From: a virus
Reading direction: 5' to 3' (one strand)
Length of the DNA stretch: 16,501 nucleotides
UHGV virus genome: UHGV-0096653
Position numbers and translations under genes: made by a program. Under the pieces are notes generated by a model. It made no database searches, was not told the DNA's origin, and saw only the letters and a list, made by a program, of their open reading frames with translations. Numbering within the stretch: position 1 is the first letter of the stretch; each line of letters begins with the position of its first letter. This document shows, piece by piece, positions 599 to 5,403 of this stretch.

Positions 599-937
599 CT
601 ATTTCCCTGAATTTACGACGAAACTGTTCGAGCGGACTGAAGCATTCATGTTCATAGCCTTCACGGAGGTAGATAACCCGTTGTGTTTCCGGCTCCCAAC
701 GAATGACTCTGACGGGCACTCCGTAGTGATCTTTGAACCAGCGGTTAACTTGTCGCAAAGGACTGTCTCCTTCTGCCGGTTGAAATCACCCACAGCCCAC
801 TCTGCAAAGCTGTGGGTTACAATTTCCCTGTCACCTGGTACATTCACTGCATAGCAATACTCCACCTTCGCTTTTCCACCCGGTACAGGAAGTGCAATCA
901 GTTGCGAACGACGGTAGTGTGTTGTTAAACTGTTCAT
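599..937 (-). CDS. Hypothetical protein (112 aa), translationally coupled to upstream CII-like gene
   Basis: ORF track; its ATG (937-935) overlaps the TGA (936-934) of the upstream gene as ATGA; same strand as the early operon. No recognisable motif. Confidence 0.4.
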
Positions 938-1524
938 GCGTTAGTTTCTCCACAACCAGAAGCAATCGACGCCACGACGCCCGGAGCTGCACACTCGCGG
1001 GCGTTACTCTTTTCTGGAGCGCAAAAGATTTTGTAGACCAGTGCTGCATGCTCCTGGAGCTTCGAAATTGACAGATACAACTCATCATTAATTGCTGTCT
1101 GCTCGTGTGGCTCCACTACCCCATCTTCGATTGCCGAACGAATCTGCTTTGAGTAACTCCCGATCTGTTCGATGACTTCCAGCAGGCGCTGGTTAATATC
1201 GGCGTTGTCCACATCCTCGACGTCAGGAAGAGACACAAAGACGCCATTTGCAGACTGCGCCACAGCATCAGCAATGAAGTGAGTGCCACCAGCACGCTGT
1301 AAAACCATTGCCCATCCCAGCGGGAAAATCTGATCGCCATCAGCACGAAGGCGGTTAAATAATGCGTTCTCTGTTACATCCAGCCAGTCAGCTGCTTCAG
1401 CGTAACCACCCGGCAACGTTGCGATAGTTTTTCTGACAGCTTTCACGTACCACTCAGGCTGTTTTTCTACTTTCCAGTGATGCTTACCCACGGCTATCTC
1501 CTTAAAACTGTGGTTACTTTCCAT
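934..1524 (-). CDS. CII-like early regulatory protein (possibly CP76/YdaT-type), 196 aa
   Basis: ORF directly downstream of the Cro-like gene in the same operon, the position of lambda cII or Rac ydaT. Family assignment is by position and general resemblance only; the annotated start overlaps the cro-like stop by 11 nt, so the true start may be internal. Confidence 0.4.
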
Positions 1525-1762
1525 CTGATAAGTCTTTAATCTTTTGAAAAATATCTGGACGTAATTTTTCTTTTGATACGCCAGTGGTCATTTCAATAAA
1601 TATCGAGAGCTTTGCAGGGGGACGCTTTTCTCTGTTCAACCAGTTCCAGACATGTTGTTGCTTTACTAAACGACCACTGCTGGCTGTGAGCTTCCGAGCC
1701 AATTCTGATTGACCACCAGCCAGAGCGATTGCCTCTGATAAGGCTAATTGCTCAGGTGTCAT
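1514..1762 (-). CDS. Cro-like HTH regulator (YdaS-like)
   Basis: 82 aa with HTH segment AIALAGGQSELARKLTASSGRL; divergent from the CI-like repressor; good RBS (AGGAGA) before ATG at 1762; consensus TATAAT -10 upstream on the minus strand. Confidence 0.7.
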   Translation of the reverse strand: MTPEQLALSEAIALAGGQSELARKLTASSGRLVKQQHVWNWLNREKRPPAKLSIFIEMTTGVSKEKLRPDIFQKIKDLSDGK

Positions 1763-1784
1763 AGCTTTCTCCTATCTGTAAGTA

Positions 1785-1875
1785 GTAAAGTTGTTGATAA
1801 CTTCGATTATACAACTACAACAACTTTTATCACAACTTTTAGATGTTGGAAAGCTAAAACATAAAGTTGTAACCT
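1785..1875. promoter_or_regulatory. OR-like operator cluster with divergent promoters (PR-like for cro on minus, PRM-like for cI on plus)
   Basis: Repeated half-site AAGTTGT/ACAACTT at about 1788, 1811, 1820, 1833, 1864, including the imperfect palindrome AAGTTGTTGATAACTT. Minus-strand -10 TATAAT (complement of 1806-1811) with -35 TTGTGA (complement of 1830-1835), 18-bp spacer. Confidence 0.65.
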
Positions 1876-1899
1876 CAATAAAAACGAGGGGGATATGTT

Positions 1900-2586
1900 G
1901 TGAAAACATTGGCAGAAAGACTAAAAAGCGAAAGAGAAAAAGCAGGAATGAGTCAGGCGCAACTAGCTGAAAAAATTGGGCTTTCACAACAATCCGTAGC
2001 GAAAATCGAGAATGGAGAAACTCAACAGCCTCGGAAAATTAAAGAGATTGCTAAAGTGTTAGGGGTTTCTCAAAAGTGGTTGCAATTGGGCATTGAGGAT
2101 AACGCGTCTTTCCCAGACCTTGTTGTAAAGGAGGCTGAAAGTACAGCATTAGATCCTGACATTTTTGCAAACATTCCAGTCCTAGATGTCGAGTTATCAG
2201 CGGGTAATGGATGTTTGGCTGAAATAGTTGAATCAACTGTAGACTGGTTCCCGCTAAGAAGGATTGATTTAAGAAAAGCTGGTGTATGTGTCTCCAATGC
2301 AAAGATCGTAAAAATTTGGGGCAATAGTTTACTACCTGTACTTAACAATGGAGATTTTGTTGCTGTTGATGTTTCCCAAACGGTTCCTATTCGTGATGGG
2401 GATCTTTATGCCATACGTGATGGCGTATTACTTAGAGTTAAAATATTGATCAATTTACCTGACGGTGGTCTGATTCTAAGAAGTTTCAATAAAGATGAGT
2501 ATCCAGATGAAATTCTCACCTTCGAAGATAGGCGTTCCAGAATTCACGTTATAGGTAGAGTATTCTGGTCATCGCGCACTTGGTAA
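1900..2586 (+). CDS. CI-like phage repressor, N-terminal HTH plus C-terminal S24 (LexA-like) autopeptidase domain
   Basis: 228 aa; HTH MSQAQLAEKIGLSQQSVAKIENG; Ala-Gly cleavage site in ELSAGNG; Ser-Lys dyad context (WGNSLLP ... LLRVKIL); GTG start at 1900 preceded by GAGGGGG. Confidence 0.85.
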   Translation: MKTLAERLKSEREKAGMSQAQLAEKIGLSQQSVAKIENGETQQPRKIKEIAKVLGVSQKWLQLGIEDNASFPDLVVKEAESTALDPDIFANIPVLDVELSAGNGCLAEIVESTVDWFPLRRIDLRKAGVCVSNAKIVKIWGNSLLPVLNNGDFVAVDVSQTVPIRDGDLYAIRDGVLLRVKILINLPDGGLILRSFNKDEYPDEILTFEDRRSRIHVIGRVFWSSRTW

Positions 2587-2613
2587 TGCATCAAAAAACC
2601 TTCCTTCAGAAAT

Positions 2614-2718
2614 TTAGTTACCATTATTACCCGCCTTTTCAATCTTCCTCCCGTGATTTGAGAGTTTCCAATCACGGAAGGAAAGTGTCCCTTGTGTAAT
2701 TAAAAGCGCATCGTCCAT
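2614..2718 (-). CDS. Small hypothetical ORF (34 aa, MDDALLITQGTLSFRDWKLSNHGRKIEKAGNNGN)
   Basis: Strong SD AAGGAGG 5 nt upstream of ATG (minus strand); no recognisable domain; convergent with cI. Confidence 0.3.
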   Translation of the reverse strand: MDDALLITQGTLSFRDWKLSNHGRKIEKAGNNGN

Positions 2719-2772
2719 ACAACCTCCTTTTTTGATAACCCTTGCCCTCATTTCACATCCGTCAAAACCACA

Positions 2773-2830
2773 TAAAGTTGTTGACAACAACCAAAACAAC
2801 AACTAGATTACAACTTAAAGATGTTGCAGT
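2773..2830 (+). promoter_or_regulatory. PL-like promoter with second operator cluster
   Basis: -35 TTGACA (2781-2786), 17-bp spacer, -10 TAGATT (2804-2809). Carries near-copies of OR motifs: TAAAGTTGTTGACAAC (vs TAAAGTTGTTGATAAC at 1794) and ACAACTTAAAGATGTTG (vs ACAACTTTTAGATGTTG at 1843). Confidence 0.6.
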
Positions 2831-2924
2831 AACGAACAGGCAGGACGCCCACGAAGTAGCCGCCGGTGGCGTATGAATGACCGGATGATTCGTTAGCAAC
2901 AAAAAAGCGCCCTACAGGACGCTT

Positions 2925-2937
2925 TGCTCTTTAAAAA
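2925..2937 (+). promoter_or_regulatory. boxA-like element (TGCTCTTTAAAAA), possible nut-type antitermination site
   Basis: Close match to rrn/lambdoid boxA (TGCTCTTTAACAA / CGCTCTTA); lies about 120 nt downstream of the PL-like promoter on the same strand. Confidence 0.4.
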
Positions 2938-3090
2938 TCAGTAACCCTCACTTTGGGCCTGGACCTGGTGGCCTGGGACGAGGAGGAATATGAAAAGGCT
3001 CTATTGGTCGGCTCATTATCCAATCCTATTATGTCTCATTTCTTCGGTTTCGGTGGTTTCGGCTTCGGAGGTACATGTCCGTGAACTGGA

Positions 3091-3585
3091 TTATGCTTGT
3101 TGCTCATCATTAATATCCGTTAGTTCATTCTCTAGAGGTAGATCTCCCGCACACCAAGCTATAAATTTTTCTTTGGTTGTTAAATCGTACTTAGTTGGAA
3201 CACCAGCAAAAATACAGGCCCGAATGAAAGCCGCTCGTTCAAGTGATTTCCATGGATTACTATCAGTATCTTGGATTTTTAAATACCTAGCTTGCAACTG
3301 ATCTTCAGAAAGAGTATCAGACTCAATCAGCAGTCTTTTGTAATGTCTCGCTTGTTCTTTAGACATCCCAGCCTCCTGGCCGAACTGATAGACCAACTGA
3401 AGAACCGAAAGTACGGCAACAAACAAACCAAAAATAAATAAATTACTGTACGGGGCGAAAACTGAAAAACCGAGAACGATTAACATCAACGTTATTAATT
3501 TATCAATGCGAGTTAACAACGTGTAATTCATCTTCTCCAATACATAAGAGTAGTGAATATAAAATTTATAATCGTCTCTGGTCAT
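3091..3585 (-). CDS. Two-TM inner-membrane protein, candidate superinfection-exclusion (SieB-like) protein
   Basis: 164-aa ORF (probable start at internal ATG 3531 with GGAG RBS, giving MNYTLLTRIDKL...). Two hydrophobic helices (LITLMLIVLGFSVFAPY, LFIFGLFVAVLSVLQLVY) then a charged C-terminal domain. AT-rich relative to flanks; immediately beside the immunity region. Confidence 0.55.
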   Translation of the reverse strand: MTRDDYKFYIHYSYVLEKMNYTLLTRIDKLITLMLIVLGFSVFAPYSNLFIFGLFVAVLSVLQLVYQFGQEAGMSKEQARHYKRLLIESDTLSEDQLQARYLKIQDTDSNPWKSLERAAFIRACIFAGVPTKYDLTTKEKFIAWCAGDLPLENELTDINDEQQA

Positions 3586-3967
3586 ATTAGTCTCAGTTTT
3601 CCTTGGGTGGTTTTGGAGGAACTGGAGGCTTTTGTCTTAACGGCACATGCCTCTCCTCATACTTATCTACACATAGATCCATATAAATCCTTATCGTTGT
3701 TGGGGAGGGTTACATAATAACCAAATCCTTGTTGTTGGGGAATAACCAGGTCCACCTCGCCTGATGTGGCTAAAAGCAGGCACATAACAGCTAAGTATTT
3801 TCAACCAGAGAGAATCCTTAGCGTTGTGGTGAATGCGGCTCAGCGCACGCGGGTTAAGGTTGAGGCTGACAGTCGACCTTCTGTGGATACCCACCCGTCT
3901 GGTGTGCAACCTTCGCCAGGCACCGGGAGGCACCCGGCACCACAACTTTATGCTGTGTGTAGTCCTG

Positions 3968-4013
3968 GCGGTACCAGTTTGTACACTTGCTTCCGGCTGG
4001 TACCGCTCTTTTT
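3968..4013 (+). terminator. Rho-independent terminator
   Basis: Perfect 10-bp inverted repeat GCGGTACCAG ... CTGGTACCGC followed by TCTTTTT. Confidence 0.6.
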
Positions 4014-4150
4014 ACAAAACAGAGAAGAGCATCACCGGACGACGGGCTCATAACCCAATCCATCCGGGCGGCTGCCACCGCAGGTGTTCTTCTCTGTTTT
4101 GTGGAGAAACCAACCGACCTTGCAGGGTCGATATGATGAGGAGCAGCAAA

Positions 4151-4513
4151 ATGGCTAGCGAACGCAGTACTGATGTGCAGGCATTTATCGGGGAGCTGGA
4201 CGGCGGCGTATTTGAAACCAAAATCGGCGCAGTTCTCAGTGAAGTCGCTTCCGGTGTGATGAACACGAAAACCAAAGGTAAGGTCTCACTCAACCTGGAA
4301 ATCGAACCATTTGATGAGAACCGTGTGAAAATCAAACACAAACTCTCATATGTTCGCCCGACTAACCGCGGGAAAATTTCCGAAGAAGACACCACCGAAA
4401 CGCCGATGTATGTCAATCGCGGTGGTCGCCTGACTATTCTGCAGGAAGACCAGGGACAATTACTGACTCTTGCCGGTGAACCTGACGGAAAACTCCGCGC
4501 AGCAGGTCATTAA
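4151..4513 (+). CDS. yfdP: YfdP-like hypothetical protein (120 aa)
   Basis: GAGGAG RBS 7 nt before ATG 4151; first gene of an operon whose gene order and product lengths (120/274/178/120) match the E. coli K-12 CPS-53 yfdPQRST cluster as recalled from memory. Confidence 0.5.
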   Translation: MASERSTDVQAFIGELDGGVFETKIGAVLSEVASGVMNTKTKGKVSLNLEIEPFDENRVKIKHKLSYVRPTNRGKISEEDTTETPMYVNRGGRLTILQEDQGQLLTLAGEPDGKLRAAGH

Positions 4514-4578
4514 TATCGTTCTTAATTAACTGATTATTTATCTCATCACTGAATATCTTTATATAGTGAGGACTTATT

Positions 4579-5403
4579 ATGTCTCAGAACTTAGACGCAA
4601 CCGCAATTAATCAAATCCATGCCCTTATTTCTGCTCAGGGTGTTAATGAAATTATCAGTAAGATTGGTGCCGATGCTGTGGCATTGCCTGAGAATTTCCG
4701 CATTCATGATCTGGAAAAATTTAATTTAAATCGCTTCCGTTTCCGTGGTGCGCTTTCCACTGCCAGCATCGATGACTTTACCCGTTATTCTAAAGATCTT
4801 GCAGATGAAGGCACCCGCTGCTTTATCGATGCTGATAATATGCGTGCCGTCAGTGTACTTAACCTGGGTACTATTGATGAACCAGGTCACGCAGATAACA
4901 CCGCCACTCTCAAACTGAAAAAGACAGCACCGTTCTCTGCCCTGCTGTCTGTTAACGACGAGCGTAACTCCCAGAAGTCACTGGCAGAATGGATTGAAGA
5001 CTGGGCCGACTACCTTGTGGGCTTTGATGCTAATGGTGACGCTATTCAGGCAACAAAAGCGGCTGCGGCAGTCCGTAAAATCACGATTGAAGCAAACCAG
5101 ACCGCTGGTTTTGAAGATAATGACTTCAGCGGCAAACGCTCCCTGATGGAATCTGTCGAAGCGAAGACCAAAGACATTATGCCAGTGGCATTTGAATTTA
5201 AATGCGTTCCGTTTGAAGGTCTGAAAGAACGTCCGTTTAAATTACGCCTCAGCATTATCACTGGCGATCGTCCTGTACTGGTTCTGCGCATTATTCAGCT
5301 GGAAGCGGTGCAGGAAGATATGGCTAACGAATTTCGTGATCTGCTTGTTGAGAAATTCAAAGACAGCAAAGTAGAAACCTTTATTGGTACTTTCACCGCC
5401 TGA
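4579..5403 (+). CDS. yfdQ: YfdQ-like protein (DUF2303-type), 274 aa
   Basis: RBS GTGAGGA; length and operon position match yfdQ as recalled. Confidence 0.55.

Follow-up and report, generated by a model that had tools for sequence, protein, structure and literature searches.

A His/Pro-rich micro-ORF and a remotely SLATT-like membrane protein gene as a predicted exchangeable two-gene module in a prophage immunity region

RexB, which acts within the RexAB system, and the SieB proteins of lambda and P22 are inner-membrane proteins made in the lysogen, encoded in or near the immunity and early-left region and linked to abortive infection or to the exclusion of other phages. Membrane proteins of the SLATT type are, to our knowledge, known only as effectors commanded by a neighbouring enzyme, be it a nucleotide cyclase, a reverse transcriptase or a TIR protein. 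SLATT proteins have been described as the membrane effectors of validated defence systems, DRT10 among them (bioRxiv 10.64898/2026.04.29.721553; PMC9122126). The present analysis concerns a minus-strand gene for a 164-residue membrane protein in the virus genome UHGV-0096653, from which a stretch of 16,501 nucleotides (hereafter the window) was studied. The fold class and the existence of lysogen-expressed membrane exclusion proteins are already known; what is new here is that the gene is, on the evidence of its sequence, the second cistron of a two-gene module, preceded by a conserved His/Pro-rich micro-open reading frame (micro-ORF). The role proposed for its product is that of a membrane effector, expressed in the lysogen and controlled by the micro-protein, which would exclude phages or abort their infection, a proposal drawn by analogy and for which we consider the case evenly balanced. 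The elements of the module are as follows.

3091-3585, minus strand: membrane-protein gene, ATG start, 164 amino acids, from the list of open reading frames (ORFs)
3682-3593, minus strand: micro-ORF of 29 codons plus stop, MDLCVDKYEERHVPLRQKPPVPPKPPKEN, from the alignment of upstream regions
3688-3692, minus strand: Shine-Dalgarno-like AAGGA, 5 nt before the micro-ORF ATG, read from the sequence
3696-3781, minus strand: conserved upstream platform, from the upstream alignment
2894-2925, minus strand: intrinsic terminator, a 9-bp stem (2925-2904) followed by TTTTTGTTGC, from the terminator scan
about 2941-3696, no strand assigned: exchangeable cargo, made up of the 3' untranslated tail, the membrane-protein gene and the micro-ORF, from flank comparisons

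The membrane protein has 72 homologues in Enterobacterales, at 55-99% identity, and its wider family comprises 224 clusters at 50% identity, nearly all of 150-180 residues. An alignment of 31 family members contains 39 invariant columns, and the protein falls in phrog_6315 (E=8.6e-64), a PHROGs family without functional annotation. Among 13 copies at 97-99% identity, 12 of the variants in the gene are synonymous and 4 are non-synonymous. Judging from these patterns, the minus-strand ORF is a real, conserved gene under purifying selection. In E. coli it is a patchy accessory gene, with the module carried by 105 of 5426 complete genomes, in a single copy each and always on the chromosome. The chromosome of E. 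coli strain W224N contains the 2900-3700 stretch at 99.6% identity within a prophage, and PGAP annotation of that copy consists of a single 'hypothetical protein' on the minus strand.

A second ORF runs across the 3' end of this gene on the opposite strand.

2990-3301, plus strand: overlapping ORF of 103 amino acids in the ORF list, judged not to be a gene

The original prediction, which had been made from the letters of the window, pointed to the AGGAGG and the signal-peptide-like N-terminus of this ORF and left it unclear which of the two frames is expressed. The ORF does exist with these features, since the AGGAGG ends 3 nt before the ATG and residues 7-30 are hydrophobic, and a match to Pfam HapK was obtained at E=3e-5 (24.9 bits, 0.1 bit under the cut-off of 25). 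Such traits would be expected of an expressed gene for a secreted protein. Nonetheless, conservation resolves the doubt over the translated strand in favour of the minus frame. In L014, a copy at 98% identity, a C>A change at 3103 creates a stop at codon 38 of the plus ORF, with the minus frame left intact and altered only from E to D. The variants within the overlap, read in the plus frame, are 4 non-synonymous (this stop included) against 2 synonymous. The plus ORF is intact solely in copies at least 97% identical, and none of the diverged homologues has this antisense register open throughout, the interruptions falling at varying places. Third codon positions coincide in the register, and when the codons of the minus gene are shuffled synonymously the longest open run averages 62.6 codons, as compared to 69 observed; the length of the plus ORF is therefore no more than chance would provide. 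The spacing of merely 3 nt between AGGAGG and ATG also counts against its translation, and the 'signal peptide' falls in the 3' tail of the cassette. No PHROG or PADLOC match was found for the ORF, nor any PDB match at E up to 10 and hence no solved HapK relative; with an unconserved ORF and a stop in a near-identical copy, the HapK identity was rejected. Sequence comparison thus leads to the plus ORF being judged an antisense by-product, and its reading as a secreted protein, already largely refuted, appears extremely improbable. Two separate observations concern the 3' tail itself. A short tandem repeat (TTCGGCTTCGGAGGT, 2 copies) occurs there at 3043-3072, and in the alleles P0002 (186 residues) and L017 (189 residues) minus-strand translation continues into the tail, for want of the TAA found at 3091-3093, and adds a C-terminal extension that is acidic and rich in Thr and Glu.

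As first described, the unit extended over 2940-3600 and the gene was presented alone. That extent omits the micro-ORF immediately upstream (3593-3682) as well as the conserved region that reaches to about 3781, and the pairing of micro-ORF and gene as exchangeable cargo had been missed. The micro-ORF was detected by aligning the 230 nt upstream of the membrane-protein gene from all loci, where a short frame with wobble-type variation is present, preceded by AAGGA or AGGAG at the same place in most homologous loci. A census was made of the 76 loci with enough upstream sequence. The strict motif [YH]-x-[EK]-[KR]-H-x-P, followed by a Pro run ending P-P-K-P, occurs in 63 of them and a looser His/Pro-rich ORF in a further 12, while in one (L064) the frame is interrupted; the micro-ORF is thus present in 75 of 76, Fels-2 included. 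Over 31 distinct sequences its pooled ratio of non-synonymous to synonymous polymorphism (pN/pS) is 0.41, and values of 1.21 and 1.48 are obtained when the frame is shifted; the membrane-protein gene has 0.31. The core of the peptide (Y-E-E-[KR]-H-M-P ... PPKP) is conserved and both of its ends are variable. The micro-ORF also precedes relatives of the membrane protein at 27-44% identity, in Fels-2, in two further lambdoid types and in short metagenomic contigs. Three distant members are without it and have another gene upstream or none; one of them follows a PF12281 nucleotidyltransferase gene, one lies in a virulent-phage-like contig and one in a 186-like prophage. No family match to the micro-ORF was found in Pfam or PHROG, and PGAP does not annotate it. 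These patterns of variation indicate that the micro-ORF is conserved, linked to the membrane-protein gene and under purifying selection.

The two frames are closely spaced. The TGA of the micro-ORF (3595-3593) lies 7 nt before the membrane-protein ATG at 3585, and in most homologues the gap is 8 nt and the micro-ORF stop shares bases with the Shine-Dalgarno sequence of the next gene (TGAGGT). A small upstream ORF in translational coupling with the next gene, a trait of type II toxin-antitoxin-like modules, was found, with a separation of 7-8 nt in most loci. The same layout could mean that the micro-ORF is purely a cis-acting leader, in which translation or pausing of the ribosome at the polyproline stretch sets the level of the membrane protein and the peptide itself has no function. 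The overlap of the stop with the downstream Shine-Dalgarno sequence and the fixed gap agree with such a leader, as do the consecutive prolines in every version and a conserved core placed approximately 7-15 residues upstream of the Pro run in a peptide whose ends vary. A conserved core before the stall site is a layout typical of the arrest peptides TnaC and SecM, and polyproline translation needs elongation factor P (EF-P). However, no excess of structure masking the ribosome-binding site was detected. Masking of the downstream GAGG by the CCUCC proline codons had been suggested by single folds, and the idea was dropped because the pairing probability (0.64) equals that of synonymous permutations (0.66) in the 31 distinct sequences. 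Amino-acid-level selection over about 20 residues also fits a trans-acting peptide, and the family members that are without a micro-ORF have another upstream gene. A leader acting purely in cis is considered a tenable possibility, falling short of being probable. A micro-protein controlling the effector, as in the reading we prefer, would draw on the same linkage and on the selection seen at the level of the peptide.

With regard to the membrane protein itself, 19-residue Kyte-Doolittle windows above 1.6 cover residues 22-70. The hydrophobic segments lie at about 30-46 (LITLMLIVLGFSVFAPY) and about 49-68 (LFIFGLFVAVLSVLQLVYQF), with PYSN between them, and the C-terminal 95 residues contain 12 K+R and 17 D+E, so that the small inner-membrane protein with two transmembrane segments and a charged C-terminal domain that had been predicted is borne out. 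Within the C-terminal domain the motifs QDxDSNPW and AGDLP are conserved. An AlphaFold2 (AF2) model with a predicted local distance difference test score (pLDDT) of 78.6 consists of two helices of about 40 residues (3-43 and 47-88) forming a hairpin, followed by four shorter helices. Both termini are probably cytoplasmic because of the positive-inside distribution and the 4-residue loop. The likely architecture, as derived from hydropathy and the AF2 model, comprises an N-terminal cytoplasmic helix, a transmembrane hairpin and a helical cytoplasmic C-terminal domain of about 95 residues. Two adjacent transmembrane helices with a very short loop are expected of SLATT proteins, and this feature is found here both in the hydropathy profile, with its 4-residue loop, and in the AF2 hairpin.

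Similarity to SLATT proteins recurs across the family. When 119 diverse relatives were scanned one by one against NCBIfam, SLATT_4 was matched by 51 of them (best E 2.2e-5), SLATT_1 by 16 and SLATT_fungal by 3; a related 'mobilome CxxC...CxxC' family was matched in 9, and unrelated families in at most 3 each. The SLATT profile matches are collinear, with residues 20-99 of the protein aligned to positions 21-108 of the 154 in the profile, spanning the hairpin and its flanking helices. A fold search of BFVD, which covers predicted structures of viral proteins, returned annotated SLATT proteins as 5 of the top 7 hits, with probabilities of 0.75-0.98, a TM score of about 0.5 and weak E values of 0.2-0.55, and UniRef names two of the homologues SLATT. 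PDB structure searches returned generic helical matches only and no solved SLATT structure, and a profile search of a 5.8-billion-protein set recovered the same family only, with no SLATT Pfam labels. One distant member, P0210, follows the PF12281 nucleotidyltransferase gene mentioned above, the classic position of an effector, and is the sole such case. On this recurrent similarity, the 164-residue protein is a remote SLATT-like relative that falls below every curated family threshold.

The original prediction had likened the architecture of the protein to that of exclusion and abortive-infection proteins of the SieB type. As family membership, this likeness found no support in the remote-homology scans, in which the recurrent weak similarity is to SLATT. 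Pfam was scanned with 31 relatives (E up to 10, all 22 families listed) and with 119 relatives (E up to 1, best 25 of 70 families listed); SieB is absent from the families listed for either set, was not matched by the window protein in Pfam, and found no support in PADLOC, where there was no match. A holin was likewise considered and rejected: the gene is in the immunity region opposite the PL strand, and the holin, endolysin and spanin genes belong to the P2-like late genes towards the right-hand end of the window, where they were placed by comparison with an annotated E. coli prophage.

HK97 gp15, T4 Imm and P22 SieA interfere with the inner-membrane step of genome injection and do not kill the cell. 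The protein might act in this way, as a superinfection exclusion factor that blocks the DNA entry of related phages at the inner membrane while the cell survives. It is an inner-membrane protein that the lysogen presumably makes, its gene occupies an accessory slot adjoining the immunity region, and the protein resembles single-protein exclusion factors in having no enzymatic partner. Nevertheless, only about 4 residues (PYSN) are expected to be periplasmic and nearly all of the conserved sequence would be cytoplasmic, the recurrent similarity points to SLATT effector families, and the family also includes one member encoded behind a nucleotidyltransferase gene and another in a contig resembling a virulent phage. 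We consider a block of DNA entry unlikely. Exclusion or abortive infection by a membrane effector is, by analogy, a plausible role for the protein.

The moron-type slot beside the immunity region that had been proposed for the gene agrees with flanks common to SfV-like phages between which the gene is swapped. Megablast comparison with phage genomes (70 phage records) gave matches confined to the flanks of the region; these match SfV, SfIV, Kati and others, in which the membrane-protein gene itself is absent or replaced. On the PL side, the window shares with Kati and SfV a block of about 65 nt just 3' of PL and then the hairpin at 2904-2925. On the other side, the shared sequence runs up to yfdP from about 3697 in Kati or about 3752 in SfV, and the interval of about 2941-3696 differs between the window and both phages. 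An equivalent of the 2904-2925 hairpin follows the homologous gene in L039 and is also present in Kati, and no plus-strand terminator was called at 2894-2925. The cassette therefore shows two features of a moron, namely its own terminator (2925-2894, recurring in L039) and exchange between genes that are adjacent in related phages, with three recurrent cargo types behind the platform.

The platform contains two CCCCAACAAC repeats (3705-3696 and 3740-3731) and the hairpin GCCTG-N13-CAGGC (3759-3781), and it is nearly invariant across loci whose proteins share just 55-70% identity. Folding of the platform as RNA gives nothing out of the ordinary (z = -0.53). A weak candidate promoter, assigned by our own reading of the sequence and below the scan threshold, may be formed by a -35 element TTCCCC at 3742-3737, a 17-nt spacer and a -10 element TATTAT at 3719-3714. 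In Kati, the same platform precedes an unrelated 144-residue soluble protein of phrog_5286 (L072, 1053-1487, minus strand). A 29-nt core of the platform was found in more than 120 viral contigs, and the cargo behind it was recorded in 120 viral contigs carrying this core.

68 of 120 contigs: phrog_5286-type protein, soluble, 144-151 amino acids
34 of 120 contigs: 200-residue coiled-coil protein with CxxC...CxxC
5 of 120 contigs: micro-ORF plus membrane-protein module

The alternative cargo ORFs are exemplified in L072 (Kati), L111 and L183, and the genes gave no PADLOC match and no informative Pfam family. From these comparisons the module is, as far as its flanks reveal, swappable cargo between the platform and the terminator, inside the PL leader and antisense to PL.

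The left third of the window is a lambdoid prophage immunity and early region, in which the following neighbours were identified.

934-1524, minus strand: cII-like gene, from the ORF list and Pfam/PHROG scans
1514-1762, minus strand: Cro/YdaS-like gene, from the ORF list and Pfam/PHROG scans
1900-2586, plus strand: repressor with HTH_3 and Peptidase_S24, from Pfam
2766-2827, plus strand: PL-like promoter with operator-like repeats, from the promoter scan and repeat comparison
4133 onward, plus strand: yfdP-, yfdQ- (DUF2303) and yfdR-like early-left genes, from the ORF list and Pfam/PHROG scans

The PL-like promoter reads TTGACA-17-TAGATT (2781-2809, plus strand) and is the sole consensus promoter on the plus strand within 1500-4700. 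Sequences beside it recur in the intergenic region of cro and the repressor: 2773-2788 matches 1786-1801 at 94%, 2807-2826 matches 1829-1848 at 85%, and 2770-2781 is identical to 1859-1870. Shared left and right operators (OL/OR) would look like these repeats. Since no plus-strand terminator was called by the terminator scan between the PL-like promoter and yfdP, PL transcripts should traverse the membrane-protein gene in the antisense direction. The claim that the gene opposes this promoter, with lytic transcripts antisense to it, is thereby upheld. The gene had also been called AT-rich, and it has 37.2% G+C as compared to 50.7% for the window; nonetheless, the whole tract of about 1350-3750, cro and the repressor included, has 36-43% G+C throughout, so that low G+C does not distinguish the gene from its neighbours.

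This position is retained well beyond the window. Essentially all of 69 related loci have the gene flanked by the repressor side, where a cII-like gene on the gene's strand is found at a distance of 1.3-3 kb, and by divergent early-left genes; the surrounding immunity types and early genes vary. Relatives at 32-44% identity have the same arrangement, next to RecT, RdgC, Bro-N, HSDR_N-like or protein-kinase genes. In Fels-2 and another 186-like prophage the gene is situated within the early lytic operon, on the strand of the repressor and again antisense. With respect to Fels-2 (L070, NC_010463.1, 3914-4640), the membrane-protein homologue has 35% identity, occupies 4001-4462 on the plus strand and is unannotated, as is the micro-ORF MSDSDNFHVLPRPAPAPKPEPGQDKK; the record annotates STM2733.1 and STM2735 on the opposite strand over the same DNA.

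It is against this background that a function other than anti-phage defence has to be weighed, in which the module would be a toxin-antitoxin-like addiction module that keeps the prophage stable, or the membrane protein would adjust host physiology or the timing of induction or lysis. A small ORF coupled to a following, potentially toxic membrane-protein gene resembles the order of type II toxin-antitoxin operons, the neighbouring cargo types are uncharacterised, and PADLOC gave no defence family match. On the other hand, the orientation of the module, opposed to lytic transcription in two phage architectures that are unrelated to each other, speaks against a function in the lytic cycle of the phage itself, and the P2-like late genes already include a holin and endolysin block. 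Furthermore, many prophage toxin-antitoxin modules act in defence anyway. A role outside defence is regarded as decidedly unlikely.

The proposed lysogen-expressed effector can be outlined as follows. The unit would be the accessory cassette at 3091-3781 (minus strand) with its terminator at 2894-2925, residing in a lambdoid prophage. As long as the repressor holds PL off, the cassette would be expressed from a weak promoter of its own, yielding two translationally linked products: a 29-residue His/Pro-rich cytoplasmic micro-protein and the 164-residue SLATT-like protein, whose helical hairpin would be inserted into the inner membrane with both termini, including the helical domain of about 95 residues, on the cytoplasmic side. 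The micro-protein would restrain the effector or set its expression, either as a labile antitoxin-like partner bound to the cytoplasmic domain or as a cis leader peptide that couples effector synthesis to polyproline translation. Upon sensing of a superinfecting phage, the latent membrane protein would damage or depolarise the membrane, and the outcome would be abortive infection or exclusion, protecting the lysogen population. During induction, read-through from PL would be expected to silence the cassette by transcriptional interference and antisense RNA.

Several results weigh against this proposal. In the NCBIfam scans, SLATT_4 scores are 13.6-24.4 bits as against a cut-off of 55, and SLATT_1 reaches 14 against 41; no curated SLATT model, of Pfam (SLATT_1-5, SLATT_fungal, DUF4231) or NCBIfam (NF0336xx), is matched at threshold by the family members scanned. 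The Pfam SLATT families match 1-2 members each in the scans of 31 and 119 relatives, and the 164-residue protein itself has no Pfam match at E up to 0.1 and no match to the PADLOC defence models. A nucleotide-generating or -sensing partner (SMODS, SLOG, RT, TIR) was found neither near the gene in the window nor in the 69 related loci. The consensus scan found no promoter ahead of the module, either in the window or in two loci homologous to it. As regards the micro-ORF, the ribosome-binding-site masking already described shows no excess over synonymous permutations, and no natural fusion of micro-protein and membrane protein was encountered, the N-terminally extended family members not being His/Pro-rich; the function rests on analogy because the masking model failed and no such fusion was found. 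Finally, no guilt by association can be drawn from the slot, because the other cargo (phrog_5286, the 200-residue coiled-coil/CxxC protein, and SfV orf33/phrog_3195) is uncharacterised.

A more specific version of the proposal would be a suicide switch based on translation surveillance. In this version, ribosome progress through the micro-ORF, dependent on EF-P and elongation, would set the amount or activity of a SLATT-like pore, and a phage that disturbs translation would trip depolarisation without a separate sensor; the switch would be kept in the cargo slot with its shared expression platform and disarmed on induction by the prophage's own PL read-through. It is put forward as speculation, and we think it has little chance of being correct in full.

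The pair of micro-ORF and membrane-protein gene recurs in two unrelated prophage architectures, always opposing lytic transcription. If it does protect lysogens, it would be a defence module of minimal size (about 600 bp) whose control element is unusual, and would mark a conserved cargo slot with a platform in more than 120 viral contigs. Two other common occupants of the slot are uncharacterised, which makes it a compact place to seek new prophage-encoded functions. There are also implications for annotation, where pipelines miss the micro-ORF and the Fels-2 record calls the opposite strand instead of the gene. Literature searches returned nothing on the accession of the E. coli protein, or on SLATT proteins with leader peptides or proline-rich ORFs. 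Likewise, no description was found of a SLATT-like protein that has no partner and is linked to a conserved His/Pro-rich micro-ORF, or of the expression platform shared by occupants of the slot.

Additional features have been observed in the surrounding DNA. The block of about 65 nt just 3' of the PL-like promoter (2832-2896, plus strand) hardly differs between the window, Kati and SfV despite differing operators and cargo. Immediately ahead of the 2904-2925 hairpin, its RNA is predicted to fold into a long stem with imperfect pairing, closed by GUUGC/GCAAC (-33.3 kcal/mol, z = -1.4); no Rfam match was found for the block, which might serve as an RNA element of the leader, in antitermination for instance. 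At the other end of the slot, a non-coding stretch of about 390 nt before the yfdP-like gene (3752-4140, plus strand) is almost identical in the window, Kati and SfV. Within it, 3793-4015 (plus strand) matches Rfam STnc100 over the full model at 44.6 bits (E=5.6e-7), below the gathering score of 47. STnc100 is a known prophage small RNA, said to be related to PasD (bioRxiv 10.64898/2026.05.13.724894). The STnc100-like stretch is situated in the PL operon leader and adjoins the cargo slot. Between the repressor stop and the OL/PL region there is a 34-codon ORF on the minus strand (2614-2718, MDDALLITQGTLSFRDWKLSNHGRKIEKAGNNGN) with a strong AAGGAGG 4 nt upstream, containing a 17-nt inverted repeat (2645-2683, 88% complementary); its sole match is a weak one to phrog_3989 (E=3.9e-4), and it is unannotated in the near-identical E. 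coli prophage. Further to the left, 195-295 comprises about 5 tandem copies of a 15-nt unit (TCAGATTTTGACGGG), with periods of 30 and 45 also scored and no convincing gene present, and the array looks iteron-like in its sequence. The remainder of the window from about 6725 to 16501 matches, at 99% identity, a block of late genes known from P2-like prophages of E. coli, with portal, large terminase, GPO scaffold, P2-family capsid, gpM, holin and endolysin. None of the complete E. coli genomes holds at least 80% of the window, and the join between lambdoid early and P2-like late genes is therefore unusual or mosaic.

When compared to the SLATT effectors, the membrane protein shares with them a helical hairpin of two transmembrane segments flanked by cytoplasmic helices, a length within their range of about 150-200 residues and carriage on mobile elements. 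In contrast to them, it has no nucleotide-synthesising, reverse-transcriptase or TIR partner and is instead associated with a His/Pro-rich micro-ORF of about 25-35 residues; it also occupies a slot in a prophage immunity region and reaches no curated threshold. With respect to the lambdoid exclusion proteins, no SieB or Rex family appears among the Pfam matches listed for 150 family members. RexB has four transmembrane segments and requires RexA, and rexAB and sieB run in the same direction as cI and PL, whereas the module described here runs against PL. BstA is a soluble DNA-binding protein and HK97 gp15 a blocker of injection. The likeness to BstA and other defence genes located immediately 3' of prophage repressors, and to the HK97 gp15 moron, lies in a single accessory unit beside the immunity region, with its own terminator and expression expected from the prophage; the proteins are unrelated, and the present unit is bicistronic, with a platform common to alternative cargo. 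The type II toxin-antitoxin operons and the leader peptides TnaC, SecM, ErmCL and MgtL/MgtP resemble the module in that a short upstream ORF is coupled to a potentially harmful gene and encodes a peptide with a conserved core and a proline-rich 3' part. As a point of difference, no conserved structure that would mask the downstream ribosome-binding site exceeds chance in the micro-ORF.

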